A stretch of 64,000 bases of DNA from an uncultured Rhodospirillaceae bacterium (lineage in GTDB: Bacteria; Pseudomonadota; Alphaproteobacteria; Micavibrionales; UBA2020): assembly GCA_964476835.1 (NCBI GenBank), contig CAYZCE010000002.1, positions 2,532 to 66,531 on the forward strand, read 5' to 3'. Under the pieces are notes generated by a model that was not told the DNA's origin, searched no databases, and saw nothing but the letters and a program-made list of their open reading frames with translations. The translations under genes and the position numbers were made by a program. Within the stretch, counting starts at the first letter, position 1. Every line of letters starts with the position of its first letter. Of this stretch, positions 14,355 through 51,328 are shown piece after piece.

Positions 14355-14777
14355 TTAGCCGACGATTTCGTCGTCCTTGAAGAAGAACTTGATTTCGATT
14401 TGCGCGTTCTCGAGGCTGTCGGAGCCGTGGACGGAGTTCGCTTCGATGCTCTCGGCGAATTCCTTGCGGATGGTGCCTGCGTCGGCGTTGGCGGGGTTGG
14501 TCGCGCCCATGATCTGGCGGTTCTTGGCGACAGCGTCATCGCCTTCGAGAACCTGAATCACGACCGGACCCGAGATCATGAACTTGACGAGGTCGTTGAA
14601 GAACGGGCGTTCCTTGTGGACGGCGTAGAAGCCTTCCGCTTGCGCCTGGGTCATCTGGATGCGCTTTTGCGCGATGATGCGCAGGCCTTGTTCTTCGAAC
14701 TTGGCGTTGATCTTGCCGGTCAGGTTGCGGCGGGTCGCGTCGGGCTTGAGAATAGAGAAGGTGCGCTGGATAACCAT
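14355..14777 (-). CDS. ndk: Nucleoside diphosphate kinase
   Basis: 140 aa starting at [13 protein letters not shown]. The catalytic motif NSVHGSDS is present. Confidence 0.95.
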
Positions 14778-31267: not shown

Positions 31268-31978
31268 TTACGCCATTTCCCAAAAGGCTTCGTGCGGGAA
31301 CGGCGTCAGCGGCTCCGCGGGGATGAAGTTGCCTTTCACGACCGGACCCGCATGCTGCGATTTGTAAATGGAGGCGAGTTCCAGCTTACGGTTCATTTCG
31401 TCTTCCGTCATCTGGTTCGCATGCCTTAAAAATTTCTTCTGCGGAAAATGATGCAGCAGACGTTGCACGGCTTCTTTTCTCGACTCTATGTTTGAAGCGT
31501 AGGGCAAGTCTTCATAAAAGAATATTCTCGCTTTTTCCTGCAATGCGGCCCAGGCGCGCACGACGGACAGAAAAACGGACAAGTGGTTCCGGTGCCGCCC
31601 GACGGCAAGAGGGCAATAAACTTCGGCGTTATCCGCGCCGCCGCCGTCCAGCAGGGACAGCAGCAGCGGCATCAGACTTCTATCCACCTCGTCGACTTCA
31701 CGGTCAATATCTTTCAGGTCGAAAGGCGTCAGTCCTAACACGGGGGCGTCGGATAAGCCGAGATCATGCCCATGAAGGGAACACGTAGCCGAAAAAACCG
31801 CATCCTCCGCGCCGCGCATTTTCGTGACCTCATCCAAAGAGGCAAGGCCGCCGGCCGTGTAATTGGAGCGCGTGAAAATATTGACCAGATGGCCGCCCAT
31901 GCCCGCCTGTGCCGTCATCCCCAGGGAGAAGCAAATATCGTCGTAATGCGGGGATAGATAGATGACTCTATCGGACAA
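31268..31978 (-). CDS. PIG-L/LmbE-family N-acetylglucosaminyl deacetylase
   Basis: 236 aa. It has the N-terminal metal motif VIYLSPHYDDICFSLG (P-H-x-D-D) and a downstream HRNH. GC is visibly lower than in core genes. Confidence 0.85.
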   Translation of the reverse strand: MSDRVIYLSPHYDDICFSLGMTAQAGMGGHLVNIFTRSNYTAGGLASLDEVTKMRGAEDAVFSATCSLHGHDLGLSDAPVLGLTPFDLKDIDREVDEVDRSLMPLLLSLLDGGGADNAEVYCPLAVGRHRNHLSVFLSVVRAWAALQEKARIFFYEDLPYASNIESRKEAVQRLLHHFPQKKFLRHANQMTEDEMNRKLELASIYKSQHAGPVVKGNFIPAEPLTPFPHEAFWEMA

Positions 31979-32045
31979 TTTTGCGGCCTTTCCCGATCCA
32001 TTGAACTACAGCACACGATACAATCAGAAGGTGAATTTTTCTATA

Positions 32046-32080
32046 AAGAAAAACCCCTGCCGTATAAACGGCAGGGGTTT
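32046..32080 (-). terminator. Rho-independent terminator of the autotransporter gene
   Basis: The stem is CCCCTGCCG (32054-62) / CGGCAGGGG (32069-77) with loop TATAAA. On the minus strand it is followed by TTTTTCTTT. Confidence 0.8.
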
Positions 32081-32107
32081 GATTATTGAGAGGTAATAAA
32101 AAATTTT

Positions 32108-35100
32108 TTAGAAATGCGACGTCACGCGGACAATGCCCGTGTGCGCGTCGTAGTCCTGTTTGAAGGTGTAGTCATAGTTGGCGGAGACATCCCAGTTGGA
32201 GGCGGTTACGTAGGTCAACCCAGCGCCAGCGTTCATTTCGCTGCGGGCAGGCTTGGCGCCGTTCGTGCCGAAAGCAGGGCCGCCGGCGACGAACTGCGAC
32301 GTCGCGTTGATGTTATCGTCGATCGTGTCATAGGAATAACCCGCGCGCAGGGACGGCCTCAGGAACTCGCCGTCCGTGCTTTTCAGGCTCCATGCGGCGG
32401 TCGCGCCGACGCCGAGCTTGAGCGAGTTCAGGGTTTGGTCGTTCACCGTCAGGACGGGGCCAGTGCCGTGCTCCGTATAGCCGTCCGTCTTCAGGTGGAG
32501 ATAGGCGGCCGAGACGCTGGGCGTCAGGATCATGCCGGTATTGCCCGTCATGTAGTCCTTGCCAAGCGCAAGTTTGGCCGAGTACTGGTCGCTATGGTAG
32601 CCGGCATCCGCCGTCAGGTCGGGCGCGCCGACGTCGTGGCGGTAGCTTTTGATCCGGTTGTAGTTGTACCCGATCTGGGCGTTGACGAACGCGGCGTCGC
32701 AGATATCCGTGCTGCTGTAAAGGTTCGCGCCATAGCTGTCGATATCCGTGCCGGTGGTATTGGCGTTTTTCGAGTTGGCGTTGGTCTTTCCGTAGCTGAC
32801 GGAGAGGCCGAGCACGCTGCCCGGCATGATATTGCCGGAGTCGATGCCGAGGCTGGTGCCGAAGGTATCCGCGTCATAACCGGCGATCCCGTCGCGGCGA
32901 TCCTGTGTGGCCGAGCGTCCGAAACCTTGCAGCCATGTGCTCATGCCGTTCGTCAGGGTGCCTGCCGCCATGCCGCTGCCGCCGCTTTCCAGCGACGCGT
33001 AACGTCGGCGGTTGAGGTTGGTTTCAGTAATGCGCTGCACGCTTTCGTTGAAGGTGATCGCGCCCGACTCCGCCGCGCCGTTGACGCCCGGCGTGAGGGA
33101 TTCGAGGCGGTCGTTGATCTTGGCATCGGTGGTCGCGCCGTTCAGGCTCGCCAGCGCGGCATCGATCGCCGGATCGACGCCCGGACCGATCTCATAGATC
33201 GCATTGCCCGCCGCGTCGTTATTGGGCGTCGTCTTCACGGTTCTTGAAACGATATAGATATCGCTCGCATCGCCGCCCACATAGTTGCCGGCGACCTGAG
33301 TGAAGCTGTACCGGAACGTGTTATCATGATCGATGGGAACCGCCGTCGTCACGCCGAGGGCGGTGCCCGTGCCGTCGAAGACCTTGAACTTGGTGCCGTT
33401 GGGGATGTAGCCGTTACCCACGGTCACGTCGAGCTTGGATCCCGTGATGTCCGCCGGGCCTGCAACGATGACGATCTGGGACTGTGCCGGTGCTGCGATC
33501 TGCGCAGGACCGAAATCGAAGTTGAACGTCCCCGCCCCGGCCGTCATGGTATTCGCCGTCAGCGACTTTCCGTCGCCGATCTCGAGCGTGCCGTTGTTGG
33601 TCAACGCGCCCGCGGTGGTCAGGTTGGCCGCCAGCATCGCGCCGGCTTGCGACTTCACGTCGAAAGAGCCGAGGCCCGTCAGCGCGCCGTTGAACGTGAC
33701 GAAAGGCGTCGCTGCGCCGTCGCCGACGATCAGCGTGCCGCCCGTAATCGTGCCGGAGACGACCTGGTCGCCGCCGATGAACTGCAGGGTATCCGCCGCA
33801 TTCGCGGTGATGGCGTTGACGTAAAGGTTGCCCGTCGTCGTGACAAGGCCGGCAGCAGGGCCGGCGATATCAAGGCTGCCGACATGCTTGCCGTCATCGC
33901 CGATGTTGCCGTCAAACGCGGTCGTTCCGGCAAAGTCGAGGACGTGGATGGCGCCATCGCCGTCCGCTGCCGCCACGATATCGCCGTTCACGTCATGATC
34001 GGTGGCGCTCAATGTCAAGGCGCCGGTGCCGTGCAGTGTCGTGGTCTTGGCGTTGACGTCGCCGTTCACGGTCAACGTTTGTCCCGTGGCAATGTCGATG
34101 GCAGCCAAGCTCGCGCCGAGCTGGCCGGCATCGCCGTTCACCGTCGCCGTCGCGTCGACGTTCAGCACACCGGAACCGTCGGGAGAGCCGGCAATGTCGC
34201 CATCAAGCCCGCCCGCGCCGCTCAGCCTGATCTCGCCGGTGCCGAGCAAGGTCGCGGTCGTCACCGTCATCAAGCTCGGACCGATATCGATCAGCGCGCC
34301 CGTATGGACGATGATGTCGCCGACCGTCAGGGGTGCAAGAGGCGCCAGTGTCTTGCCTGTCTCGACGCTCCATGTGAGCGTACCGCCCGTCGCCGTGACG
34401 TTGTTGCTGTTAATATAATTACCTGAAACGCTCAGGATGTTGTCACCCGCGCCCAGGTCGGCTGCGCCGATGAAAGCGCCGCCGTCCAGCGCCAGCCTGT
34501 CCGCACCCGCGCCGGTGGTGATGTCGCCCGTCAGCGTGCCATCCGCCAGCACGATGGTGCTGTTGCCGCTGCCGGCCAGAAGAATGTCGCCATCAATCGT
34601 GCCTGCGTTGGTCAGCGTCACCGTCTGGTTGCCGGATTCGTGGATCTGCCCGGTGATGGTGCCGCCTGCGGCGTTCGTCAGCGATCCATTCGCGCCGAAG
34701 TTGACCGCGACGCCGAGGCCCGCGCCCGTGCCGTTCGCGACGATCGTGCCGGCGTTGGTGATGACGCCGGTCTGTGCAGCGGATATTTGCAGCGCGACGG
34801 CGCTGTTGTTCGCCGCCGTATTGGCGATCTTGGCCGCCGCCAGCGTCACGTCGCCGTTATCGGCGCCGAAGACGAAGGTGCCCTGCCCCGCCGTGACGTT
34901 CGCCGAGGTCACGCTGCCGGTGCCGGTCAGCGAAGCCAGCGCGTTCGCGCTCATGATATTGATGCCGATCGACGTCTGGCCATCGATGGTGTCGTTGTTG
35001 ACCAGGATGGTGCCCGTGCCGTCGAGGTCGATCCCGTTTCCTGCCACGCCGGCCGCGCCGGGCGTGCCGCCGCCGGTGCCCGCTGCGCCGCCCGCGCCGC

Positions 35101-35512
35101 CCTTCACCGTCATGCCGCCGTTGAGGGTGACCGTGTCGTTGGAACCTGTCACGAGAATGCCGGATCCGCCGGCGCCGCCGTTGCTGTTATCCGGCGCGCC
35201 CGTATTGGGACCACCCGCGCCGCCCTTGCCGCCGGTCACATTTCCGCTGGCCGTGAAACTGCTGTTCGCTCCGCTGACGAGGGCACCGACACCGCCTGCG
35301 CCGCCGTCGCCGCCGCCGTTATTGGCGCCGCCGGCACCGCCCGCGCCGCCCGTAAACGCGCCACCGGAAACGCTGTTGCCGTCCGTGACGCTAATGCCGG
35401 GACCGCCCACGCCGCCATCTGTCGACTGCGCGTGCCCTGCGGAAATGCCGCAGGCCATGACAGCCATAAATGCAGTGCTCGTCAGTAGTGCTTTTTTCAG
35501 CTTGATGCTCAT
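32108..35512 (-). CDS. Autotransporter (type Va) outer-membrane protein with a Gly-rich beta-helical passenger
   Basis: 1134 aa. It has a signal peptide (MSIKLKKALLTSTAFMAVMACGISAGHA), a long G/T/A/N-rich passenger with GGAGG runs, and a C-terminal autotransporter barrel ending ...RVTSHF. Confidence 0.9.
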   Translation of the reverse strand: MSIKLKKALLTSTAFMAVMACGISAGHAQSTDGGVGGPGISVTDGNSVSGGAFTGGAGGAGGANNGGGDGGAGGVGALVSGANSSFTASGNVTGGKGGAGGPNTGAPDNSNGGAGGSGILVTGSNDTVTLNGGMTVKGGAGGAAGTGGGTPGAAGVAGNGIDLDGTGTILVNNDTIDGQTSIGINIMSANALASLTGTGSVTSANVTAGQGTFVFGADNGDVTLAAAKIANTAANNSAVALQISAAQTGVITNAGTIVANGTGAGLGVAVNFGANGSLTNAAGGTITGQIHESGNQTVTLTNAGTIDGDILLAGSGNSTIVLADGTLTGDITTGAGADRLALDGGAFIGAADLGAGDNILSVSGNYINSNNVTATGGTLTWSVETGKTLAPLAPLTVGDIIVHTGALIDIGPSLMTVTTATLLGTGEIRLSGAGGLDGDIAGSPDGSGVLNVDATATVNGDAGQLGASLAAIDIATGQTLTVNGDVNAKTTTLHGTGALTLSATDHDVNGDIVAAADGDGAIHVLDFAGTTAFDGNIGDDGKHVGSLDIAGPAAGLVTTTGNLYVNAITANAADTLQFIGGDQVVSGTITGGTLIVGDGAATPFVTFNGALTGLGSFDVKSQAGAMLAANLTTAGALTNNGTLEIGDGKSLTANTMTAGAGTFNFDFGPAQIAAPAQSQIVIVAGPADITGSKLDVTVGNGYIPNGTKFKVFDGTGTALGVTTAVPIDHDNTFRYSFTQVAGNYVGGDASDIYIVSRTVKTTPNNDAAGNAIYEIGPGVDPAIDAALASLNGATTDAKINDRLESLTPGVNGAAESGAITFNESVQRITETNLNRRRYASLESGGSGMAAGTLTNGMSTWLQGFGRSATQDRRDGIAGYDADTFGTSLGIDSGNIMPGSVLGLSVSYGKTNANSKNANTTGTDIDSYGANLYSSTDICDAAFVNAQIGYNYNRIKSYRHDVGAPDLTADAGYHSDQYSAKLALGKDYMTGNTGMILTPSVSAAYLHLKTDGYTEHGTGPVLTVNDQTLNSLKLGVGATAAWSLKSTDGEFLRPSLRAGYSYDTIDDNINATSQFVAGGPAFGTNGAKPARSEMNAGAGLTYVTASNWDVSANYDYTFKQDYDAHTGIVRVTSHF

Positions 35513-40460: not shown

Positions 40461-43400
40461 ATGAAGGTCCGCGCAACGTCCCTTCCCGGGAAAGGGAGGC
40501 AAGACACGCCCGCACACCCGCCCTTGCGGGCACGGTTTCCCGTTGTCGGGATCGGCGCCTCGGCGGGCGGACTGGAAGCCGTCGGCGCGCTGCTCGAGAA
40601 CCTTCCCGCCGATACCGGCATGGCTTTCATCTTCGTCCAGCACCTCGCCCCCGGGCACACAAGCCTGCTGACCGAACTGCTCTCCGGCAAGACGTCCATG
40701 CCGGTGGTGGAGGCCGCGCAGGGCCTTGCGGTCGAGCCGAACCATATCTACGTCATCCCGCCCAATACCAGCCTCACGGTCGCGCAGGGCTGCCTCGCGC
40801 TGACGCCACGCAACGACGCGCGCGGACTTCCCATGCCGGTCGACGACCTGTTCCATTCCCTCGCCGAAGACCAAGGTGCGCAGGCCATCGGCGTGTCGCT
40901 GTCCGGCAGCGGCACCGACGGTGCGCTCGGCATGCAGGCCATCAAGAACGGCGGCGGCATCACCTTCGCGCAGGATGACATGTCCGCCCAGTACGGCAGC
41001 ATGCCGCGCGCCGCGGTCGAACTGGGCTGCGTCGATTTCGTGCTGCAGCCCCCCGCAATCGCCGCGGAACTCGCGCGCATCGGCCGCCTTCCGCCGCAAG
41101 GCGAGCATCCCGCCGACGCCGACGAGGCGCAACTGGGGCGGATATTCCAGCTTCTGCGCGGCAGCTGCAATCTCGACTTTTCGCACTACAAGCGGGGCAC
41201 CATCCAACGGCGGCTGGCGCGGCGGATGACATTGAAGAACATCGACGGCCTGGCCGTCTATGTCGCCCTCCTCGAGGCCGATCCCGCGGAGCAAAAGCTT
41301 TTGTGCCAGGACTTCCTGATCCACGTGACCAGCTTCTTCCGCGACCCGGAGAGTTTCGACAACCTCGTCAAATACGTCTTCCCGCGCATCATCGACGCGC
41401 ATGCGCCCGGCGGCGCATTGCGGATCTGGGTGCCGGGCTGCTCGACCGGGGAGGAAGTCTACTCCCTCGCCATCTGCTGCCTCGAGTACATGGAAGAGCG
41501 CGGCGTCAAGATGCAGGTCCAGATTTTCGGTACCGACGCCAGCGAGCCCACGTTGCAAACCGCACGCACCGGAATCTACGTCGAGAACATCGCGCGCCAC
41601 GTCTCGCCCGCGCGGTTGGAAAAATTCTTCGTCAAGACCGGCGACCGTTACCAGGTCGCCAAGGCCGTGCGCGATCTCTGCGTTTTTGCGCGCCACGACG
41701 TGACCAGTGACCCGCCATTCTCGCAGCTAAACATGATCAGCTGCCGCAACCTCCTCATCTACCTCGACCCGGTGCTGCAAAAGCGCGTGATCCCGCTGTT
41801 TCACTACGCGCTGAAGCCCGACGGCGTCCTGATCCTCGGCCCCGCCGAGAATATCGCCGGGTTCGCCGACATCTTCTCGCCCGCCGGCAACCAGAAGATC
41901 AAGCTCTATACCCGCAACGTCCTCTCCAAGCAGTCGCAGTTGAAATATATGGCGAACTATGCCGGAAAATCCGCCGCGACGGCTCCGCATCCCGCGCGCG
42001 CGCCCGGCCTTTCCCCGAAAAAATATACCGAGGACGAACAAAGGAAGCGCGAAGCCAACCGCATCACGCTCAGCCGCTATGTGCCGGCGGCCGTGCTGTG
42101 CGACAAGAACCTTAACGTGCTGGAATTCCGCGGCGACACCGGCCTTTACCTGACGCAGCCTTCCGGCCCGCCCGAGGTCAACCTTCAACGGCTCGCCCGG
42201 CCCGGCCTGCTCGTCGAAATCGGCAAGGCGACGCAGCGCGCGGGGATTGAGGATGCGCCGGTGCGCAAACCCAACCTGTGGGTGGAAACGCCGGCGGGCC
42301 CGAAAGAAATAACGCTGGAAGTCATACCCGTGCGGCGCGCGGCGGCGGAAGAGCCATGGTTCCTGGTCTTCTTCGAAGACAAAGCCCCGTCGGCGCCGGT
42401 TCCGGCATCCAGTTTCTGGGCCAGCTTCGGGAGGCTGGTTCTCCATCGTGTCAGGCAGGGGTCCGCACCCGCGCCGGAAGGCGCCGTGCAGGCCGAACTG
42501 CTGCGGCTGAAACAAGAGCTCCACGATACGCATGAGCATATCCGCACGATAACGGAAGAATACGAGGTCGCGACAGGCGAGCTGCAGGCCTCGCAGGAAG
42601 AACTGCAATCCAGCAACGAGGAATTCCAGAGCACCAACGAAGAGCTGGAAACCGCCAAGGAAGAATTGCAGTCGGCCAACGAAGAACTCATCACCACCAA
42701 CGAGGAAATCGGCCACCGCAACAACGAGCTGAACACGCTGAATGGCAAGCTGAAACATGCGCTGTCCTACGCGGAATCCATCATCAACACGGTCAGCCAG
42801 CCCTTCCTGGTGCTCGACGGCGAGCTGCGCGTCCTCCGCGCCAACCCTGCCTTCTACAAGACGTTCCGCACGGCGCAGGAAGACACGTGCGGACGCCGCC
42901 TGTTCGACCTCGGCGACCGTCAGTGGGACATACCGGAGCTTCACCAACTGCTCCTGCAGGATACGCCATTCAAGGACTGCGAGATCACCCATACCTTTCC
43001 CGGCATCGGCACGAAGACGATGCGCCTGAATGGCGCGCGGCTGGCGTGGGACGGGCAGACACAGATCCTGCTCGCTATTGAGGATGTCTCCGACTATACC
43101 CGCGCGCTCGACGCGCTGAAGGAAAAGGACAAGCATAAAAACGAATTCCTGGCGATGCTGGCGCACGAGCTTCGCAACCCCCTCGCCCCCATGCGCAACG
43201 CGCTGGATATCTGGAATCGCGACGACGCGGGCGACAAGGAAAAGACAGAGGCCCGCAAGATCATGGACCGCCAGTTACAAAAGATGGTGCAACTGGTCGA
43301 CGACCTTCTCGACATGGCCCGCATCACGCGCGGCATGACCGTACTGCGGCAAGACGCCGTCGACATGGCGCAGGCGGTCGCGCACGCCACCGACAGCGCG

Positions 43401-44222
43401 CGCCCCTTTCTTGACGCACGCAGGCATATCGTCTCGCAATCACTTCCGCAGGAAAAACTATTCGTCGCGGGCGACGCCATGCGCCTTGAGCAGGTTGTCT
43501 CCAACTTGCTGATCAACGCCGCGAAATACACCGCGCCAGAAGGCCGGATCTCGGTGATGCTGGCACGCGAAGGCGACGACGCGGTGCTACGCGTCGCCGA
43601 TAATGGCGTGGGCATCATGCCGGAGCTCCTGCCGCATATCTTCGATCTTTTCGTGCAGGCGGAACGCACGCTCGACAGAAAGCAGGGTGGGCTCGGCGTC
43701 GGCCTGACGCTGGCGCGCCGCCTCGTCGAATTGCAAGGCGGCACCATCGAGGCGAAAAGCGCCGGACTGAAGCAAGGCAGCGAATTTATCGTGCGCCTGC
43801 CCGCGATGCCGTCTGCGACGCCCGGCATATCCACACCGATGGCTCCCGCGCAACTGAAGACCGTCGCACACAAGCGCATCCTCGTCGTCGACGACAACGC
43901 CGACGCTGCCCTCACCACCCAGACCTTGCTGGAACTGCAGGGGCACGAGGTTCAGGCGGCGTCCGACGGTGAGGCCGCCCTTGCGGCGGTGCAGACGTTC
44001 AGGCCGGAAGTCGTCATTCTCGACATCGGACTGCCGGGGATGGACGGTTATGAAATCGCGAAGCGCCTGCGCGCGATGCCGGAAACCGCACATGCCCTGT
44101 TGATCGCCCTCAGCGGCTACGGCCAGGCTGAGGACATCCGCAAGTCGAAGGAATCCGGCTTCGACCATCATTTGCTGAAGCCCGCCGAGACTGGCCGGAT
44201 CGAAGCTCTGATCTCCGCATAA
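40461..44222 (+). CDS. CheB methylesterase - CheR methyltransferase - PAS - coiled coil - PAS - HisKA/HATPase - receiver fusion protein
   Basis: 1253 aa. The CheB-like region has VVGIGASAGGLEA...FVQHL. The CheR-like region has TSFFRD...RIWVPGCSTGEEVYSLA...ISCRNLLIYL. The heptad coiled coil is EELQSSNEEFQSTNEELETAKEELQSANEEL. The H-box is AHELRNPLAPM, and a receiver sits at the C-terminus. Confidence 0.9.
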   Translation: MKVRATSLPGKGRQDTPAHPPLRARFPVVGIGASAGGLEAVGALLENLPADTGMAFIFVQHLAPGHTSLLTELLSGKTSMPVVEAAQGLAVEPNHIYVIPPNTSLTVAQGCLALTPRNDARGLPMPVDDLFHSLAEDQGAQAIGVSLSGSGTDGALGMQAIKNGGGITFAQDDMSAQYGSMPRAAVELGCVDFVLQPPAIAAELARIGRLPPQGEHPADADEAQLGRIFQLLRGSCNLDFSHYKRGTIQRRLARRMTLKNIDGLAVYVALLEADPAEQKLLCQDFLIHVTSFFRDPESFDNLVKYVFPRIIDAHAPGGALRIWVPGCSTGEEVYSLAICCLEYMEERGVKMQVQIFGTDASEPTLQTARTGIYVENIARHVSPARLEKFFVKTGDRYQVAKAVRDLCVFARHDVTSDPPFSQLNMISCRNLLIYLDPVLQKRVIPLFHYALKPDGVLILGPAENIAGFADIFSPAGNQKIKLYTRNVLSKQSQLKYMANYAGKSAATAPHPARAPGLSPKKYTEDEQRKREANRITLSRYVPAAVLCDKNLNVLEFRGDTGLYLTQPSGPPEVNLQRLARPGLLVEIGKATQRAGIEDAPVRKPNLWVETPAGPKEITLEVIPVRRAAAEEPWFLVFFEDKAPSAPVPASSFWASFGRLVLHRVRQGSAPAPEGAVQAELLRLKQELHDTHEHIRTITEEYEVATGELQASQEELQSSNEEFQSTNEELETAKEELQSANEELITTNEEIGHRNNELNTLNGKLKHALSYAESIINTVSQPFLVLDGELRVLRANPAFYKTFRTAQEDTCGRRLFDLGDRQWDIPELHQLLLQDTPFKDCEITHTFPGIGTKTMRLNGARLAWDGQTQILLAIEDVSDYTRALDALKEKDKHKNEFLAMLAHELRNPLAPMRNALDIWNRDDAGDKEKTEARKIMDRQLQKMVQLVDDLLDMARITRGMTVLRQDAVDMAQAVAHATDSARPFLDARRHIVSQSLPQEKLFVAGDAMRLEQVVSNLLINAAKYTAPEGRISVMLAREGDDAVLRVADNGVGIMPELLPHIFDLFVQAERTLDRKQGGLGVGLTLARRLVELQGGTIEAKSAGLKQGSEFIVRLPAMPSATPGISTPMAPAQLKTVAHKRILVVDDNADAALTTQTLLELQGHEVQAASDGEAALAAVQTFRPEVVILDIGLPGMDGYEIAKRLRAMPETAHALLIALSGYGQAEDIRKSKESGFDHHLLKPAETGRIEALISA

Positions 44223-44249: not shown

Positions 44250-44284
44250 AGACCGTGCGTAGCGCCGGCCAAGGAGCGTCCGCC

Positions 44285-44533
44285 ATGCGTAGAATAAAAA
44301 TCAAGGAGATGTTCCTGACCTTCACGTTCGTGGCCGCGATCCGGCAGGAGGTGCTGGAAAACTCAGACGGCGCTGTGACGGCCTCCGTCCGCGATCCTGA
44401 AATCGGCCTTGTCCGGTTTTCCACCGCGTCGAAAAACGACAAGGACGTGATGATCTCAACAAGAGACCACAAGAAAATATCCATGCAAAGATTCATGGAG
44501 GTATACGGCGCTATCTTCGACAGACGTCTATAA
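44285..44533 (+). CDS. Hypothetical 82-aa protein
   Basis: An internal ATG of ORF 44255.. is preceded by a strong AAGGAG SD 8 nt upstream and an EcfG-like motif. No family was recognised. It lies in the AT-rich patch. Confidence 0.4.
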   Translation: MRRIKIKEMFLTFTFVAAIRQEVLENSDGAVTASVRDPEIGLVRFSTASKNDKDVMISTRDHKKISMQRFMEVYGAIFDRRL

Positions 44534-45164
44534 AACAGGTGAAAAGATGGAGGATCATCGGCTGCGGGAATTTGGCACAGAGAAGGTTTGTCGCTAGAGT
44601 GCCTGCACAACCGCCTAGTCCGGTGTCTGGATGCTCTAGCATCTATTCGGATCGCTAACTTTTCTCCAAGTTAGGCAAAGCTGAAAGTATGATAACAAAA
44701 CGATATAAATGGTTGAAATATAGTCATGGGATGCTGTGACTCACCTTTAATCCATCGTAAAATGACAAAATAAAATTTCGCCCTTTCGAGGTTCGATTTC
44801 TAGGTTGGTCAACCATTCACCTTCCGAGTATCTCGGATCCCACTGAATCAACGCAAAAGCCCCGCATTTACGCGCGTTTTTCTGCGCTCGATTTTCGCCA
44901 CACCGCAAAGCTCGCACAAGTTTCCACCGTAAATGGCAATTTTGCTCGAGGGGGCTGTTTTCTAGTGTGGCGATCCCCCCGTTCATTGCCGCCTCACCGA
45001 AACCCACTGCCAAAAGACAAGGGCGAACCGGTTGAATCAAGTAGCCCTCCATGCAATGGAAGCAAGGTATACTAAGTAACTAGACCGGCTATCGAGACTC
45101 CACAGGCCTCAATGAAGACGAGAACTTCATCGCTGTCTGATTTCGTAATATTGTTTTTCTTATC

Positions 45165-45841
45165 GTGCTGGGCCTGCCGCTGGGGCTCGGCAAGGCCAAT
45201 CACCTCGTTAACGCGCTTGTCGGCAAGGCGATATCCGATCCGTCGATAAACTTGAAAATATTCACGGCGCTCACCCTTGAAAAGCCGCGGCCTGCAAGCG
45301 AGTTGGAGCGCCGGTTTCTGGAACCGGCTATGTCACGCCTTTTTGGCGACTACCCGGCGCTGGAATACGCGGGACATTTGTATGACGGGTCTCTCCCCGC
45401 CAACATTCAGGTGAATGAATTTTTCCTGACGGCGGGACAATGCTGGGGGTTGACCGGATGCAGCAGAACTATATCGCTGCCAATTACTCGCAAGCCCCTT
45501 CTTACTTGCTGGATCACGGCGTCAATGTCATTACGCAGCTCGTGGCGAAGAAGGGGACAGAATACAGCCTTAGCTGCAATCCCGACCTGACGGTGGACCT
45601 CCTGAAGGAGCGCAAAGAAGGGCGTGCGCGGTTTATCTTTGCCGTCCAGACCAACAGCGAACTCCCATTCATGGGCGGGGATGCCATTCTCGCGAAAGAC
45701 GAATGCGCATTTGTCCTCGACAGTCCGGAAACGGACTTCGATCTTTTCGCCGTGCCCAGAAAACCCGTCAGCCTTGCCGAGCATGCCATCGGGTTGCATG
45801 CGGCCCGAGCCGGCTTGCGTATCACGGAATTTTGCCGTTAA
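45165..45841 (+). pseudogene. Frameshifted, truncated fragment of an acetyl-CoA hydrolase/transferase-like gene
   Basis: Frame A (45165..~45438) reads LGLPLGLGKANHLVNAL...FTALTLEKPR..SELERRFLEP...FGDYPALEY. Frame B (~45460..45841) continues QQNYIAANYSQ...GVNVITQLVAKK...YSLSCNPDLTVDLL...AVQTNSELPFM...FAVPRKPVSLAEHAIGLHAA. The two frames are colinear with one protein family. The N-terminus and the whole C-terminal half are missing. Confidence 0.7.
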
Positions 45842-46049
45842 AGCCCGCCTCGCATCCGCTCCTGGGGAGCGCGCGGATTAACATTACTTTTCGCAAAGTC
45901 CAGCCATAGGCGTGGGATCGCCTACCGAAATACAGGCAAGCCTATGTTTTAAAGACATTTTCCATTTATTTCACAGATTCATATTGCATAAATAAAAGCC
46001 GGCCCATAGTATCAGGCAATTCAAATGTACAGCCCTGAAAGCGAAGCCC

Positions 46050-47675
46050 ATGGCCGGTGAGACCAACAAGCAATCGCGTGCGTTCCTCTATGCGAGCCTC
46101 GGCCCGCTGATCCTGCAGCAACTGGCGGCAGACGCGACTTGCGCGGACGTCTTCCCCGCGCCCGTGCTGGAGATCATCGCCGCGAAAAAGGCGCCGACGC
46201 CGGAAGAACTGAAGACGGCGGTCGAGGCCTTCCTCGACCGCGCCTGCCCGTCGCGCAAGGATTGCCTGCCGGTCGTCCGTTGGGTGTGTCGCCAATATCT
46301 CCAGCACCGTCACAACGGCAAGCCCGTGCTGGCAGAAGACCTTTCCAAGATCGGCGACAACATCCGGTATTTCGACGGCCTCAAGAATTCCGCCGCCTTC
46401 AGGGAAGCGAAGAACAAGACCGACCTCACGCAATATAAGACTTATGCCGAGTTCGAGGCGACGATCGACCCCTTCCTGAAACGCCAGCAACAAAAGCAGG
46501 CCGTCGCCGCCGCGTTCAACATGAAACCGGAAGAACGCGCCGCGATCATGGCGGAAACCACGGTGCTTTACGCCGGGCCGGAAGGCACCGTCGTCGTGGC
46601 GCACACGATACGCGCCAGCCAGCACTGGGGCAGCAACACGAAGTGGTGCCTCGCCGGCCAGAAAACCGCCGCCGGGGCCTTCCCGGGCTACAACAAGAGA
46701 TCGCCCGTCATCATGATCCTGCCTAAGGGCATGCCGGACAAGAAGGTCGCGCTGGTTGACCACAAGCTCTGGAACAGCGAAGACCACACGGTCGACGGCC
46801 TGCCGCAGGCGCATTACGGCCTGCTGCACGCCTGCCTCGGCACACTATCTCCCGGCGCGCGCGACGGGCTGGCGCCATGGCTGCCCGCGGCGGTGGAAAA
46901 AATCCTCGATGATGACAACGCGGCCGAGCCTGCTGAAGAAAATCCGCCCGCGAAAAAGCCCGGCATCAACATCATCACTGACCGCGACGAAGCGCTGGCC
47001 GCCATCCGCAAGAACGGCCGCGCCTTGATACGCCTGAGCACAAACCTGCGGGACCGCGAGATGTGCCTGATGGCGATCGCGCAGAGAGCTTCCGCATTTG
47101 ACGGCGTCGTGGCGCCGTTGCGCCAAGACCACGGTTTCATCCTCGAGGCCATGCAGGCGAACGGCGGCGCGCTGGAACATGTGCCCGACAGATTCCGCCG
47201 CGACCGCGATATCGTGACGGCGGCCGTGAAGCAAGACGGCCTTGCGCTCCAATACGCCTCGCAGGGGCAGCGCCAGCGGCGCGGCGTCGTGCGCGCGGCC
47301 GTGCTGCAAAACGCCAAGGCCTTCGAATACGCGACGCGCAAGCTGCGCCAAGACCCGGACTTCGTGCGCGGCCTGCTGGAAGATGGCGCGGGCGACCTCG
47401 CCTTCTGCATCCGCGACATGAAATACGTCCGCTACTCCGAACCCGGCGTCTGGCAGCCCGACGACGCAGAACTGCAAGGCTTCCAGATCAAGGCCCTGCA
47501 AAAAATGGTTGCGGCCGGCGACCGCCGGAAATTCGCCGCCTGCGCGCGGCATTTCAAGGCGGTCTGGGGCGACCCGGAAAAGCTGTTCGGCGGCGACATG
47601 GATGCGGCGATCCGCGCCATCATGGCCGAACCGGCGCCCGCACCGCGCCAGACGGGGCAAAAACCCGCCCTGTAA
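46050..47675 (+). CDS. Uncharacterised protein: unknown ~300-aa N-terminal domain + DUF4116-type repeats
   Basis: 541 aa. Residues ~311-445 carry about 4 repeats of the DUF4116 pattern (D.E..L.A...NG.AL.Y......D.). An example is DRDIVTAAVKQDGLALQYAS. The N-terminal domain was not recognised. Confidence 0.75.
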   Translation: MAGETNKQSRAFLYASLGPLILQQLAADATCADVFPAPVLEIIAAKKAPTPEELKTAVEAFLDRACPSRKDCLPVVRWVCRQYLQHRHNGKPVLAEDLSKIGDNIRYFDGLKNSAAFREAKNKTDLTQYKTYAEFEATIDPFLKRQQQKQAVAAAFNMKPEERAAIMAETTVLYAGPEGTVVVAHTIRASQHWGSNTKWCLAGQKTAAGAFPGYNKRSPVIMILPKGMPDKKVALVDHKLWNSEDHTVDGLPQAHYGLLHACLGTLSPGARDGLAPWLPAAVEKILDDDNAAEPAEENPPAKKPGINIITDRDEALAAIRKNGRALIRLSTNLRDREMCLMAIAQRASAFDGVVAPLRQDHGFILEAMQANGGALEHVPDRFRRDRDIVTAAVKQDGLALQYASQGQRQRRGVVRAAVLQNAKAFEYATRKLRQDPDFVRGLLEDGAGDLAFCIRDMKYVRYSEPGVWQPDDAELQGFQIKALQKMVAAGDRRKFAACARHFKAVWGDPEKLFGGDMDAAIRAIMAEPAPAPRQTGQKPAL

Positions 47676-47753
47676 AGGCAGCGCGGCGTTGACCGAGGGC
47701 CGGAATCATGGGCAAAATGCGGCCATATTTGTTTTAGATCGAAAGAAGACGCC

Positions 47754-49193
47754 ATGCGGCTTATCGCCTTCACCAAAGACCACCGCGATTTCTACGCCAA
47801 CCTGCCCGCGGCAGCCGGCACGATCGACGTCTGCCCCGACGAGACGAAGGACGCGGTCGCGCACAACAACGCCGATATCGCCATCCTCGACGGCGAGTCC
47901 TTCCGCGCGCTCAAGAGCGAGCGCAACTACCGCCACCTGCGCGAGCTGTACCTGCCCCTCGACCTCGGCTTCGGCAAGCTGTGCAAGGCGCTGGCCTACA
48001 GCGCGCGCTACCTCGCCGCGCGCCGCCTGCGCCCTTACGCCACCGCCACGCTGACGGCGGCCAACGGCGCGCAACGCCGCTTCCTGAAGATGAAGATCCA
48101 TTCGCGCAAGACGCGGAATTCCGAATTCGACTACTACCCCGCCGAATGGACGGCGCTCGACTTCCTCAAGTTCCTTGACGGCCTCGGCGCGCGCTACGTG
48201 GCGCTGCGCTGGCACGACAAGATCCTCCACGACCTGCCGATGCGCGACATCGACCTGCTGATCGCGGACGAGGACATCAAGAAAGTCACGCAGAACCTCG
48301 ACGGCCTCGTCGGGCGCAAGAAGGTGCACATGCACTCCGTCAACGGCGGCGAGCGCGAGAAGGTCGACCAGATGGCCTATTTCCCGCCCAAGATCAGCCG
48401 CCGCATCATCGAGAACCGCGTGAAGCTGACGGACAACGTCGGCTTCCGTCCGTCAGACCATGACCATTTCTTCTCGCTCGCCTATCACGCCGTCGTCGAC
48501 AAGGGCGCGGCCTCCGGCCTGCCGGAAGCGCCGGGCATCGCCGCCGACCCGGAGAACAAGTACTATAAGGAACTGAAGCGCCTGCGGGACGTGCTCGGCC
48601 TCGACGTCTCCATCGACCTTGAATCGCTGGTGGTCTGCCTCGAGAAAAACCACTGGCTGCCGCCCGCCGACCGCCTCGCGAAATTCGTCGCGCGCAATGA
48701 ATGGCTGAAGAAACGCATGGCCACGGTGCCGTCGGCGACCAGCCACATCAACGGCGATTATACCGTCATGCTGATCCGCGAGATCGTGCGCGAATGGGGC
48801 ATCCTGCCCGAACTGCTCGCCGACCTGCGCAAGATGGGCTTCCAGATCGTATTTGAAAAAGAACTCAAGGGCGAGGAGCGCGAGCACATCTGCACCGAGA
48901 TCCGCGGCGGCAACTGGAGCCCCGGCCCCTGGAAGACCAACGGCGGCAGGCCTTTCTACGCCCTGCTGCTGTTCGACCCGAAGCCGATCAAGATGACGCG
49001 CAAGCAGCTCACGCAGTTTCCCTTCGTGCAGAACGCGCGCCTGCTGAACAAGAGCAAGTGGCGCGAGAAAGTCAACGCCCGCTTCCCCAAGGCGCAGCAG
49101 GCCAACTTCGTGCATGCGAGCGACAATACGCACGAGGCCTACGAATACCTCTCGGTCATCGCGCCCCAGGCCGTCGACGAACTGATGAAATAA
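47754..49193 (+). CDS. Uncharacterised protein with a nucleotidyltransferase-like DxD segment and an NDK-like C-terminal segment
   Basis: 479 aa. LGARYVALRWHDKILHDLPMRDIDLLIADEDIKKVTQNLDGLVGRKKVHMH resembles the 'uncharacterised nucleotidyltransferase' pattern (R..DiDlLv..~D...a...L...G....v.lH). The C-terminal ~135 aa can be threaded on NDK and ends in ANFVHASDNTHEAYEYL. Confidence 0.7.
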   Translation: MRLIAFTKDHRDFYANLPAAAGTIDVCPDETKDAVAHNNADIAILDGESFRALKSERNYRHLRELYLPLDLGFGKLCKALAYSARYLAARRLRPYATATLTAANGAQRRFLKMKIHSRKTRNSEFDYYPAEWTALDFLKFLDGLGARYVALRWHDKILHDLPMRDIDLLIADEDIKKVTQNLDGLVGRKKVHMHSVNGGEREKVDQMAYFPPKISRRIIENRVKLTDNVGFRPSDHDHFFSLAYHAVVDKGAASGLPEAPGIAADPENKYYKELKRLRDVLGLDVSIDLESLVVCLEKNHWLPPADRLAKFVARNEWLKKRMATVPSATSHINGDYTVMLIREIVREWGILPELLADLRKMGFQIVFEKELKGEEREHICTEIRGGNWSPGPWKTNGGRPFYALLLFDPKPIKMTRKQLTQFPFVQNARLLNKSKWREKVNARFPKAQQANFVHASDNTHEAYEYLSVIAPQAVDELMK

Positions 49194-49196
49194 GAT

Positions 49197-50384
49197 TTAT
49201 GCGCGGTAGACGACGAAGCTGCCGATGCCGCTTCCCTGACCTTGCCGCGCCGCCCGCAGCACCGCCTTCTTCAAGCGCTTGAACAGGCGTTTCGGCAGGC
49301 GGCAGAGCAGGAAGGCGAAACGTTTCATCGTCAGGCTGCCCTCTCCCGACAGTTCCGCCAGCGAGACACCCAACACCTTGCGCCAGTCGTCTTCATACGT
49401 CACGGCGCGTCCGGCCGGCAATACGCCGGAAAAGCCCGGCGGCGGGCCTTTCACGTCGAAGCTTTCCGAGAAATCCGTGCCGGCCGGCTGGTCGGCGAGA
49501 TATTCGAGGTCGGCGATCCGCACGGCATCGCCCTCGAACAGGAACGCGCCGGGATGCGCGTCAAGAACGGCGCAGCCGCGTGCATGGATCTTGCGGAGCA
49601 GCGCGAAACACGCCCGCGCGCGGGCGAGCGGGAACAGCCCAAGGCCGTCTTCACGCCACTGCCACGCGTCAGGATAATACGGCATCACGAAGTAGTTGTC
49701 GCCCACTTCCAGGATCGGCGTCACTTCCGGCAGCCCTGCCAGGCGTTGCCGCGCCGCAAGCTCGCGCTGCAGGAAGTCGAGCGCTGAGAGGCGGAACGTC
49801 TTGCACACCGCCCGCGTCCCGCGGAAATCGACGACGTCAACGCGCGAACGCGCCGCATGGCTGCCAAGCTGCTGCAGCACGGCATATGGCGGACGGAATG
49901 CCTCGGCGCCGGCGCATGCCCGGGCGCGGATGGCGTCGCTATCGGCGGGAAACAGGCTCTTGATCATCAGCGCCGTTTCGGCGGCTGTCGCCAGCCGCGC
50001 GACTTGCGCCTTTTGGGTGCGGAAACGGCGAATGAGCTGGCGTGCCGCCTTGTCGCTGCGTGCGGGCGAAGGCTGCAAATCCTGCGCAGCGGCCGCCAGC
50101 AGGAAACGGTGCGATGCCGGCTGGGCCAGCCCTGCCGGCAAGGTTCCGGCCGTCGTCGCGGCCAGGAAATCAAAACCCCGCATCGTCAGCATCTCGCGCA
50201 ATTCCGCCGCCGTTGCCTCGAGCGGAACGGGCGCGGTCACGATAAAAAGTTCAGTGAAGGGAAACTCGGAAGAAAATTCCACGCCTAGTACCGGGTCAGT
50301 CTGTTTTATGAAATCATTAAATACCAGTATCATGACCAGCGTCAAGGGGACGTTGGTATGCATTTTTTCATAATATAAAAACAT
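49197..50384 (-). CDS. Protein-kinase-like fold protein (Kdo/WaaP LPS-kinase-like) with an unknown N-terminal domain
   Basis: 395 aa. It has AVCKTF (Lys), RELAARQRL (Glu), a catalytic-loop-like VLDAHPGAFLF and VRIADLEYL (DFG-equivalent). The start is uncertain: no SD precedes any of the first three Met codons, and the first ~100 nt are AT-rich. Confidence 0.65.
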   Translation of the reverse strand: MFLYYEKMHTNVPLTLVMILVFNDFIKQTDPVLGVEFSSEFPFTELFIVTAPVPLEATAAELREMLTMRGFDFLAATTAGTLPAGLAQPASHRFLLAAAAQDLQPSPARSDKAARQLIRRFRTQKAQVARLATAAETALMIKSLFPADSDAIRARACAGAEAFRPPYAVLQQLGSHAARSRVDVVDFRGTRAVCKTFRLSALDFLQRELAARQRLAGLPEVTPILEVGDNYFVMPYYPDAWQWREDGLGLFPLARARACFALLRKIHARGCAVLDAHPGAFLFEGDAVRIADLEYLADQPAGTDFSESFDVKGPPPGFSGVLPAGRAVTYEDDWRKVLGVSLAELSGEGSLTMKRFAFLLCRLPKRLFKRLKKAVLRAARQGQGSGIGSFVVYRA

Positions 50385-50435
50385 GGGTGCCGCGCGGCTT
50401 TATTGGACAAGGCGGCTCTGCTAACGTGGTGCCCC

Positions 50436-51328
50436 ATGAACCAGACTCCAGACAGCCCGGGCCGGATGTACCTGCCCTTTATCCCGCCCAACGCCTGCGA
50501 CCTGCAGGTCAGCTTCGAGTTCTTCCCGCCGCAAACGCCGAAGATGGAAGAGACGCTGTGGGAGTCGATCGGCCTGCTCGCGCCGCTCAAGCCGTCGTTC
50601 GTCTCGGTCACCTATGGCGCGGGCGGCTCGACACGCGAGCGCACGCACGAGGTGGTGACGCATGTGCAAGAGCGCACCGGGCTGAAGGCCGCCGCGCACC
50701 TCACCTGCATCGGCGCCTCGAAGGGCGAGATCGACGACATCGCGCGACGCTATTGGGCGAGCGGCATCCGCCACATCGTCGCGCTGCGCGGCGACATCCC
50801 GCCCGGCCATGCGCATGCGAAGGACGGCTACGACCACGCCTCCGACCTCATCGCCGGCCTCAAGAAAATCGCCGACTTCGAGATCAGCGCCGCCGGCTAC
50901 CCCGAAAAGCATCCCGAGGCGCCGAGCATTGAGAGCGACATCGACTTCCTCAAGCGCAAGGTGGATGCCGGCGCCAGCCGCGTCGTCACGCAGTTCTTCA
51001 TTGAACCTGCGACCTTCCTGCGCTTCCGCGACCACGCGGCAAAGGCAGGCGTGAACGTGCCGATCGTGCCGGGCATCTTGCCCGTCTCCAACTACGAGAA
51101 GACCGTGCGCTTCAGCAACGCCTGCCAGGTCGCGCTGCCCGAATGGCTGCACACCCTCTTCACCGGGCTTGACGCGCAACCCGACACGCGCCGCCTCGTC
51201 GCCGCAACCGTCGCCGCCGAGCAGTGCCGCGCGCTTTATGCCGAGGGCATCCGCCACTTCCACTTCTACACGCTGAACCGGGCGGAGCTGACGCTGGCCA
51301 TCTGCCATATGCTGGGATTGCGCGCCGC

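Follow-up and report, generated by a model that had tools for sequence, protein, structure and literature searches.

In the LicD, fukutin and FKRP systems with POMK, an NTase-fold enzyme bearing a DxD motif and a kinase-fold sugar kinase together produce phosphodiester-linked glycan decorations. In WbdD and ORF6-O7, a kinase and then a phosphate-capping enzyme act on the termini of the O-antigen (PMC3482155, PMC11231755). In the pseudomycoidin lasso-peptide cluster a kinase, PsmK, and an uncharacterised DxD NTP-transferase, PsmN, yield a hexose-on-phosphate product; the DxD of PsmN is essential, and PsmN is required for the hexose to be placed on the phosphate installed by PsmK (PMC6993621).

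The gene pair described here, B and C, resembles WbdD and ORF6-O7 in having a protein-kinase-like domain and a second catalytic module, with a capping role assigned by analogy, and in having modules that are variably fused, split or GT-fused within polysaccharide clusters (PMC3482155, PMC11231755). The likeness is one of logic only, as B and C have no detectable sequence homology to those enzymes and the predicted second module of B is an NTase fold plus an NDK fold, unlike the SAM methyltransferase of WbdD/ORF6-O7. WbdD-type enzymes are further defined by a coiled-coil ruler, of which none was noticed in the pair, and by an ABC-transporter-dependent O-PS locus, whereas the B-C contexts are mostly Wzx/Wzy-type. 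Like PsmK/PsmN, the pair joins a kinase to a putative DxD NTase-fold enzyme, but the PsmK/PsmN substrate is a lasso peptide, PsmK is of the HPr-kinase type, and that system has no NDK-like domain. The resemblance to LicD/fukutin/FKRP with POMK is limited to fold class and logic, and LicD (PF04991) gave no match in any scan run. We put at about 0.55 the probability that B and C are the split form of a widespread cytoplasmic enzyme for assembling or decorating a cell-envelope polysaccharide (LPS/LOS core, O-antigen, capsule or EPS, the target being covered by the same figure), and that the neighbouring gene A is a bystander.

The window is the whole 64,000-nucleotide stretch of DNA that was analysed. 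Within it, the ORF list places gene A at 46050-47675 on the plus strand (541 aa; stop TAA at 47673-47675), gene B at 47754-49193 on the plus strand (479 aa; start ATG at 47754, stop at 49191-49193), and gene C at 49197-50384 on the minus strand (395 aa; stop at 49197-49199). The stop of A and the start of B are 78 nt apart, and B and C converge with 3 nt between their stop codons, confirming the layout and protein lengths given in the preliminary description. All three are conserved in homologues elsewhere, which marks them as real genes rather than chance ORFs. Their GC content is 0.60-0.68, against 0.63 for the window. The sole AT-rich patch nearby (44.5-46.0 kb, GC 0.48-0.53) lies beside the block and holds frame-broken ORF fragments. 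The order metF/C/B/A recurs on independent groundwater-metagenome contigs. In the window, B-C is flanked by metF-metH and the DUF4116 gene, and no glycan gene adjoins it. A window-wide search for the partner genes seen elsewhere (GT25, AT3-SGNH, CTP-dependent kinase-like, Wzx, GT61 and GT2) found none; only a weak GT4 match at 30224-31267 emerged, the nearest glycosyltransferase, about 15 kb from B-C.

Gene A carries three DUF4116 repeats at about 46998-47399 on the plus strand, as the preliminary description had proposed; the match to Pfam PF13475 scores 94.7 bits (cutoff 24.9; E = 2.3e-27). This region is the only part of A, B or C to match PHROGs. The N-terminal half of A is unannotated and had no significant match among PDB sequences. 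The full-length homologues of A (P0021 and P0024) are solitary genes amid housekeeping genes in unrelated neighbourhoods. A homologues were never seen beside B or C in other loci, and no DUF4116 gene lies near the B or C homologues in any B or C locus examined. On these grounds we judge gene A to be an unrelated bystander outside the B-C module, and the trio as a single system is ruled out. Thus the three-gene system suggested earlier holds for B and C, which are adjacent or fused in other genomes, and fails for A.

B belongs to a large family. We found homologues at 56-71% identity and, beyond these, 1,360 clusters at 50% identity that make up a deep family, which is therefore widespread and unannotated rather than a one-off. 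It spans at least eight phyla (Planctomycetota, Gemmatimonadota, Proteobacteria, Actinomycetota, Bacillota, Verrucomicrobiota, Lentisphaerota and Cyanobacteria), and its cultured carriers include Planococcus, Adhaeretor mobilis, Oligosphaera ethanolica and Blastococcus. The family is covered by neither a Pfam nor an NCBIfam model, searches of Pfam, NCBIfam, PADLOC, PHROGs and PDB sequences gave no match for B, and the members looked up are all "hypothetical" or named only for a fused GT domain. A literature search on the B-C architecture and on PF14907 found no characterised relative. The AF2 model of B (pLDDT 83) shows an N-terminal alpha/beta domain, an NTase-like domain, a helical linker and an NDK-like domain. 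The N-terminal domain (residues 1-120; 47754-48113, plus strand) appears Rossmann-like from the AF2 secondary structure and is missing from about half of the family, the 'core-only' members. The B model gave weak methyltransferase-fold matches in BFVD (E 0.02-0.08), which may correspond to this domain.

The NTase-like domain (residues 125-262; 48126-48539, plus strand) is marked by weak matches of the family to PF14907 and by near-invariant residues. Its motifs, checked at the codon level, are LRW at 151-153, D165-x-D167 within the RDIDLL noted in the preliminary description, D172, and H245 and K250 in YHAVVDKG. Weak matches to PF14907 (NTP_transf_5) were obtained with 19 of 32 diverse family members, the best at E = 1.1e-4 and all below the 31.2-bit cutoff; the window B itself scored E = 0.32, also below the cutoff. 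The Pol-beta-like NTase proposed earlier is supported to this extent. PsmN is presumably a PF14907 member. Across 149 sequences the D165/D167 DxD is near-invariant, and an invariant L-R-W replaces the hG[GS] loop of Pol-beta-type NTases. At the third acidic, metal-ligand position at least 90% of the family has Asp, whereas the window B has His192. The clade of the window B departs from the Asp, Tyr and His of the family at three positions, with His192, His194 and Asp249, and these changes (D192H, Y194H and H249D) are kept across the whole clade at 56-71% identity. A profile of the domain found nothing significant among PDB sequences, and the domain yielded no structural match. Weak sequence matches and the order of secondary structure suggest that the middle domain of B is a remote member of the NTase fold.

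The C-terminal domain of B (residues 331-479; 48744-49190, plus strand) is predicted to have the NDK alpha/beta fold, from Foldseek, hhalign and weak PF00334 matches of relatives. The best 50 Foldseek matches in PDB are all NDKs or NDK-domain proteins (E 1.6e-4 to 2e-3; TM(target) 0.45-0.58), and the best BFVD matches are NDKs too. In Pfam, the window B had no match to PF00334; 15 of 67 fused relatives matched it below threshold, the best at E = 1.4e-4. These results, with Foldseek at E about 1e-4, bear out the NDK-like module of the preliminary description. A canonical ndk is encoded separately in the same genome (14355-14777). When the deep B-family alignment was compared with this ndk by hhalign, 123 columns aligned at E = 1.3e-3 with the His motifs in register; a shallow B alignment matched at the His motif alone. 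The domain carries an NFVHASD motif (N451, H454, S456 and D457), the C-terminal NxxH[AG]SD noted earlier, with the histidine of NxxH[AS]SD retained. It also keeps R342, R384 and R437. By hhalign, B residues N451, H454, S456, D457, R342 and R437 correspond to NDK N115, H118, S120, D121, K12 and R105, and these active-site equivalents are invariant or at least 90% conserved in the 149 sequences. His454 is presumed to be the phospho-histidine. The domain thus shares with NDK (PF00334) the fold, the NxxH[GS]SD motif and equivalents of Lys12, Arg105 and Asn115 (Arg342, Arg437 and Asn451), but the identity is only about 15%, an insert containing RGGNW is present, and the domain forms part of a multidomain protein. 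We know of no prior description of an NDK-fold domain within a glycan-cluster enzyme.

Against Pfam, NCBIfam, PADLOC, PHROGs and PDB sequences the sole match of gene C was RfaY (NCBIfam NF007684), which is non-significant at E = 0.19 and 11 bits against a cutoff of 248; Pfam gave no match to Kdo/WaaP PF06293. Three homologues were found at 44-47% identity, each adjoining a B homologue or a GT25 gene. Overall confidence in the model of C is low (pLDDT 60). The first 42 or so residues are unconserved with pLDDT below 40, and the annotated start lies 51 nt from the divergent metF start; the true start may therefore be Met8 or Met18.

Foldseek and motif comparison delimit a protein-kinase-like core at residues 165-300 (49485-49892, minus strand). 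Foldseek matched C to Rio2, CK2, Csk and class III lanthipeptide-synthetase kinase domains in PDB (E 2e-6 to 2e-5), with 613 PDB matches at E of 1e-3 or better from a model of only pLDDT 60. The kinase fold proposed earlier is thus upheld, at E about 1e-6 for Rio2, CK2 and lanthipeptide-synthetase kinases. The Lys/Glu/D-x-HPG-x-F-L/DLE set that had been read from the sequence is present as K195, E208, D275-AHPGAFLF and D292-L-E294. C is therefore like the Kdo/WaaP kinases (PF06293: WaaP, WaaY/RfaY and KdkA) in its protein-kinase-like fold and in keeping the Lys, the Glu, the catalytic Asp and the DxE/DFG-like Asp. It differs from them in falling below the PF06293 and NCBIfam thresholds, in lacking the catalytic-loop Asn, and in an extra N-terminal NDK-like remnant. 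The Asn is A280 in C and A, S or T in the three homologues, and it is present in the fused relatives, which themselves gave sub-threshold Pkinase, APH and ABC1 matches (Pkinase in 40 of 67). Pfam matches to NTP_transf_5, NDK and Pkinase were throughout below the gathering thresholds. The remnant (residues 43-155; 49920-50258, minus strand) was delimited by hhalign and lacks both the catalytic His and the RGGNW insert. It aligned with the B-family NDK-like domain over 108 columns at E = 5.2e-4, against E = 0.38 for a reversed control, and we tentatively consider it a degenerate copy of the B-type domain.

A C-like kinase domain is fused to the C-terminus of B in 86 of the 148 top B-family representatives; one such fusion is P0014 (match E 5e-14). 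In an alphaproteobacterial MAG the genes form an overlapping operon, GT25 to B to C, and at another locus a GT25-B fusion is followed by C. Counting with a fused-kinase profile trimmed free of the NDK tail, we found 22 fusions among about 75 B-family genome loci and a further 17 with an adjacent kinase-like ORF, while at 33 loci a kinase partner is absent within 10 kb. The adjacency or fusion in many genomes supports B and C as a genuine functional pair, probably the separated halves of what is usually a single enzyme.

The B family is fused to GT25, GT4, GT41-TPR and FkbM domains. One B-C fusion, preceded by GT28, GT4 and Wzy, sits between Wzz/BY-kinase and a Wzx flippase. The 132 flanking genes collected from 44 genomes include 16 GT2, about 7 GT4-type, 7 Kdo/WaaP kinase, 5 Wzx, 4 sugar dehydratase/epimerase and 3 GT61 genes. 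The Planococcus locus reads RmlA-like, dehydratase, B-C, Wzx; that of Adhaeretor WaaP-like-GT2, GT61, B, GT2; and that of Oligosphaera two Kdo-like kinases, B, GT4. In Sneathiella the gene directly upstream of B encodes an AT3-SGNH acyltransferase. Genuine PF06293 genes recur beside B-only family members. These fusions and neighbours (GTs, Wzx, Wzy, Wzz, dehydratases, AT3-SGNH and Kdo/WaaP kinases) point to surface-glycan assembly or decoration and not to defence, which favours the surface-glycan alternative of the preliminary description. The closest relative of B, P0002 (71% identity), has neither glycan neighbours nor an adjacent C, and the best B homologue found in genomic DNA is 57% identical.

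We infer the substrate, donor, product and chemistry of the B-C pair as follows. The usual form is a single polypeptide whose three modules look catalytic: a DxD NTase-fold module, an NDK-fold module with a phospho-histidine motif, and a protein-kinase-like module. The kinase module (C), in the manner of WaaP, KdkA and WbdD, would phosphorylate a sugar hydroxyl on a lipid-linked or nascent glycan. The NTase-fold module of B would then cap or extend the phosphate with a nucleotide-activated group, for which PsmN is a precedent. The NDK-like module might relay phosphoryl groups via His454, either regenerating the NTP of the partner domains or converting a phosphomonoester to a diphosphate. The catalytically dead remnant in C may dock C onto the NDK-like domain of B, since NDK domains oligomerise. 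Given the substitutions in B (His192, His194 and Asp249) and the loss of the Asn in C, either protein could have altered or reduced activity. Outer-membrane stability and resistance to antimicrobial peptides are governed by the phosphate decorations of LPS, capsules and wall glycopolymers, as are phage and immune recognition and chain-length control; for many of these decorations the enzymes are unknown. The B family is newly defined, with a three-module architecture, a genomic association with glycan assembly and no characterised member. It is possible, though doubtful, that it represents a new glycan-tailoring class in which a phospho-histidine relay, a kinase and a Pol-beta-fold transferase build an undescribed phosphate-bridged cap, which could be a pyrophosphate, nucleotidyl-phosphate or glycosyl-phosphate. 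If true, its occurrence in so many phyla could account for phosphorylated substituents that stand unassigned in structures of LPS, EPS and cell-wall glycans.

The same genomic contexts could also suit an enzyme of precursor supply. In such a cycle the kinase would act like NahK and AmgK, anomeric kinases of the kinase fold, and yield a sugar-1-phosphate; with NTP the NTase would turn this into an NDP-sugar, and the NDK would re-phosphorylate the NDP released by a glycosyltransferase. The three activities fit one cycle, the NDK active-site residues are kept, and B-family members are fused or adjacent to glycosyltransferases. We nevertheless think this reading unlikely. Known sugar-1-phosphate nucleotidylyltransferases have an RmlA/GalU-type fold and not a Pol-beta/PF14907-type one, and the Planococcus cluster has its own RmlA-like enzyme beside the fusion. 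The organism also has a housekeeping ndk already, and the kinases that occur as separate partners belong to the Kdo/WaaP type, whose substrates are assembled glycans. A precedent does exist for a bifunctional kinase/pyrophosphorylase, namely FKP (PMC11982464). The LPS-kinase family of the separate partners, with the classical polysaccharide clusters of most contexts (Wzx, Wzy, Wzz and sugar-nucleotide genes), likewise counts against the phosphorylation or nucleotidylation of a protein target (for instance an S-layer protein, flagellin or host protein), perhaps together with A. In favour of protein modification, C most resembles protein kinases in its fold, and some relatives carry GT41 (an OGT-like protein glycosyltransferase) and TPR repeats as fused parts. 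Ankyrin-repeat genes flank a truncated B homologue, and repeats of this kind, like DUF4116 repeats, typify interaction or effector proteins. However, no secretion signal or secretion-system linkage was seen, and we regard protein modification as quite improbable.

NTase-fold and kinase combinations occur in conflict systems, and the preliminary description had offered a nucleotide-signalling or conflict module. In such a module, directed for example against phage, the NTase would make a nucleotide signal, the kinase and NDK would tune nucleotide pools, and A would serve as scaffold. A phage-type integrase adjoins the block in Sneathiella, and some neighbouring GT4 genes cross-match the 'GT4-conflict' Pfam model, but these matches are secondary to much stronger ordinary GT4 matches. 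The PADLOC-DB 2.0 defence models matched none of A, B and C at E of 1 or below, the module has no effector-like partner, A is not conserved with B or C, and the neighbourhoods are consistently polysaccharide clusters and not defence islands. This reading is highly improbable. Decay is a different kind of explanation, in which B and C would be non-functional relics of a once-fused gene. The AT-rich patch with its broken frames, the changed near-invariant residues (D192H, Y194H and H249D in B; Asn to Ala280 in C), the dead NDK remnant in C and the position of the pair outside any glycan cluster are all in its favour. However, the two ORFs run their full length without breaks and keep native GC and GC3, and the same substitutions are kept across the B clade at 56-71% identity and in all four C-family members, which indicates purifying selection on a variant active site. 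We therefore think it distinctly unlikely that B and C are relics.

A 398-aa gene convergent with B in Sneathiella was considered as a C homologue and ruled out by BLASTP; over the NTase region it is instead paralogous to B (E = 1.7e-7). In the A-B gap of the window, a consensus scan alone gave a sigma-70-like promoter match (TTGACC-18-CAAAAT; 47689-47718, plus strand), in a scan that returned 5 sites in 7 kb against 1.4 expected, and this match may be a putative promoter of B's own.

The three ORFs of the block lie where the preliminary description placed them, and its account of their spacing, convergent stops and motifs was confirmed in the sequence. Gene A (46050–47675, + strand; 541 aa) is separated by 78 nt from gene B (47754–49193, + strand; 479 aa), and the stop codons of B and gene C (49197–50384, − strand; 395 aa) converge with 3 nt between them. 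B contains the motifs RDIDLL and NFVHASD, and C contains K195, E208, D275-AHPGAFLF and D292-L-E294. The GC content of the three genes (0.60–0.68) is like that of the window (0.63), and the AT-rich stretch near them is limited to 44.5–46.0 kb. The gene order metF/C/B/A recurs on independent groundwater-metagenome contigs. Inside the AT-rich patch (44250–46000; GC 0.48–0.53 versus 0.63), two ORF fragments in different frames (45165–45590 and 45440–45841) had no Pfam match; the fragments within the patch look like decayed gene remnants.

We found that B and C are partners forming one unit. All three C homologues adjoin either a B homologue or a GT25 glycosyltransferase gene, in the arrangements GT25, B (35% identity, E = 3e-78), C; a GT25–B fusion (758 aa, E = 5e-70) followed by C; and a 557-aa ORF, GT25, C. 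In the natural B–C fusion P0014, residues 166–298 of C align at 37% identity (E = 5e-14). An HMMER profile search covering 1.84 billion representatives in full placed 1,360 clusters in the B family, 598 of them at E ≤ 1e-30. Among the top 148 representatives, a C-like kinase domain is fused C-terminally to B in 86 and N-terminally in 1, and 61 are B-only. At the genome level, 22 of about 75 non-redundant loci are fused and 17 have an adjacent kinase-like ORF, often a bona fide Kdo/WaaP-family gene. This pattern of fusion and adjacency across the family indicates that the window holds, as B and C, the split form of a normally single protein. The family spans at least eight phyla and, as the Gram-positive Planococcus is among its carriers, it is not LPS-specific.

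Gene A is a bystander to this unit. Its full-length homologues (34–41% identity) are solitary genes in unrelated neighborhoods, in one genome between ftsK and pheA-type genes and in another with an acyl-CoA ligase gene on one side and flagellar genes on the other, and a DUF4116 gene is absent from every B- or C-carrying locus examined elsewhere. Both findings rule out A as a member of the B–C unit, and the proposal that the trio forms one system falls with them. A matches DUF4116 in Pfam with three repeats (E = 2.3e-27). Its N-terminal ~300 residues (46050–46955, + strand) have no match in Pfam or PDB sequences, and this half of the protein is kept at the same level of identity in seven full-length homologues.

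Neither B nor C has a significant match in Pfam, NCBIfam, PADLOC, PHROGs or PDB sequences; the best library match of C, to RfaY, is not significant (E = 0.19). Public names of family members are "hypothetical protein" throughout or are taken from a fused glycosyltransferase. The superfamily assignments of the B and C domains are all sub-threshold by sequence. The AF2 model of B (pLDDT 83) comprises four regions. Residues 1–120 (47754–48113, + strand) form an alpha/beta domain absent in half of the family. In the BFVD fold search with B, weak methyltransferase-fold matches (E 0.02–0.08) ranked after the NDK matches; they may point to a degenerate Rossmann/methyltransferase-like nature of this N-terminal domain. 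Residues ~125–262 form the DxD domain, for which relatives give weak matches to PF14907 NTP_transf_5 (19 of 32 diverse family members, best E 1.1e-4), and the succession of its elements, helix-strand-loop-strand(DxD)-helix-strand, agrees with a minimal NTase of the Pol-beta type. After a helical linker (residues 263–330), residues 331–479 adopt an NDK fold: the top 50 Foldseek matches in the PDB are all NDKs (E from 1.6e-4), BFVD agrees, and PF00334 is weakly matched by 15 of 67 relatives. The window also carries a canonical housekeeping ndk (14355–14777, − strand; 140 aa; motif NSVHGSD), and the NDK-like domain of B is therefore an additional, specialized copy. Profile alignment of the two (123 columns, E = 1.3e-3) equates Arg342, Arg437, Asn451, His454 and Ser456/Asp457 of B with Lys12, Arg105, Asn115, His118 and Ser120/Asp121 of ndk, and the aligned residues of B either do not vary or reach at least 90% conservation among 149 sequences.

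The AF2 model of C has a pLDDT of 60 overall and about 80 in its core, where residues ~165–300 form a protein-kinase-like fold; its Foldseek matches in the PDB (E 2e-6 to 2e-5) include the kinase domains of Rio2, CK2, Csk and class III lanthipeptide synthetases. Residues 43–155 align with the B-type NDK-like domain over 108 columns (E = 5.2e-4; reversed control 0.38) and have neither His motif nor RGGNW insert. Judged from these alignments, C looks like the "NDK-like + kinase" portion of a fused ancestor. The catalytic-loop Asn is replaced by A, S or T in 4 of 4 C-family proteins and is retained by the fused relatives (D-F-x-P-x-N). The clade of B found in the window has His192, His194 and Asp249 in place of the Asp, Tyr and His typical of the family. 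Each of the two changes is conserved within its clade and has the look of a variant active site, not of decay. The first ~42 residues of C are neither conserved nor structured, so its true start may be Met8 or Met18. In the interval 50333–50436, 51 nt separate the annotated start of C at 50384 from the divergent metF start at 50436 (external gene call).

The B family is embedded in polysaccharide assembly. P0014 is part of a cluster of the Wzx/Wzy kind, in the order GT28, GT4, Wzy, Wzz/BY-kinase, B–C, Wzx, and further fusion partners in the family are GT25, GT4, TPR-GT41 and an FkbM methyltransferase. The 132 flanking genes surveyed in 44 genomes included GT2 (16), GT4-type (about 7), Kdo/WaaP kinase (7), Wzx (5), GDP-mannose-dehydratase/epimerase-type (4), GT61 (3), APH (3) and sulfotransferase (2) genes. 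Cultured organisms provide further examples: Planococcus sp. 107-1 has, in this order, RmlA-like, 4,6-dehydratase, B–C (L038, 9818–11926), Wzx and epimerase genes; Adhaeretor mobilis HG15A2 has a WaaP-like–GT2 fusion, GT61, B (L039, 9830–11437) and GT2; and in Oligosphaera ethanolica two Kdo-like kinases are followed by B and then GT4. At Sneathiella-type loci an AT3-SGNH acyltransferase precedes B, which is convergent with a B paralogue and a CTP-dependent-riboflavin-kinase-like gene, with a kinase of another type occupying the partner position. Thus, of the earlier interpretation, the domain calls (DUF4116 in A, DxD NTase-like and NDK-like in B, kinase fold in C) and the surface-glycan alternative hold, the latter supported by polysaccharide-cluster neighbors and glycosyltransferase fusions; the trio and the conflict-system idea do not, and a PADLOC check of A, B and C gave no match.

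In the window there is no glycan cluster around the B–C pair, whose neighbors are the DUF4116 gene, metF-metH, a CheB-CheR hybrid histidine kinase and the AT-rich, apparently decayed patch. Glycan neighbors are also missing around the nearest relative of B (71% identity), which has no adjoining C. The only glycosyltransferase in the scanned part of the window is a GT4 (30224–31267), about 15 kb from B–C, beside OMP and autotransporter genes. The GT4, a 236-aa unannotated ORF and a 1,134-aa autotransporter (32108–35512) are all on the − strand (30224–35512), adjoined by an OMP beta-barrel gene (29597–30262). The hybrid kinase (40461–44222, + strand) is a 1,253-aa fusion of CheB methylesterase, CheR methyltransferase, PAS, HisKA-HATPase and receiver domains.

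As a pair, B and C are members of an extensive family of NTase/NDK-like/kinase enzymes that has no annotation and is found in polysaccharide clusters, and the three modules keep catalytic-looking residues. We infer a scheme in which the kinase would place a phosphate on a hydroxyl group of a sugar in the glycan, either nascent or lipid-linked, the module with the DxD NTase fold would cap or extend that phosphate from a nucleotide-activated donor, and the NDK-like module would relay phosphate via His454 for NTP regeneration or diphosphate formation. There are precedents for this logic. WbdD and ORF6-O7 carry out a kinase step and then phosphate methylation, with variable module fusion (PMC3482155, PMC11231755), and in PsmK/PsmN a kinase is followed by an uncharacterized DxD NTP-transferase needed for hexose-on-phosphate (PMC6993621). 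Among the glycan-related readings, the chief competitor of this scheme is a cycle of sugar activation, in which a sugar-1-kinase and an NDP-sugar synthase would be followed by NDP recycling. We rank it lower, because the NTase fold differs from known sugar-1-phosphate nucleotidylyltransferases, RmlA-like genes already co-occur with the family, and where the kinase partner is a separate protein, it belongs to the LPS-kinase type. We found no published description of the NTase/NDK-like/kinase architecture in the literature. The family, of relevance to glycobiology and enzymology, would be a variation on known glycan-tailoring logic, in an already familiar broad functional category and with a chemistry that is so far predicted.

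In Sneathiella sp. P13V-1 the block of AT3-SGNH, B, B paralogue and CTP-dependent-RFK-like genes (L001, 6046–12815) abuts a phage-type integrase, and a 57%-identical B with its paralogue (L014) lies on a contig assigned by binning to Halopseudomonas (Gammaproteobacteria). The two observations give a hint of horizontal transfer. Tandem or near-tandem paralogues of B are present in genomes of Pirellulales and Planctomycetaceae (L030, 9782–11437 and 11458–13098; L025, 9431–11434 and 13205–14692). A truncated B homologue of 298 aa (P0011, JGI metagenome 3300050046) consists of the N-terminal and NTase part only, and is flanked by ankyrin-repeat genes on either side and an HTH regulator.
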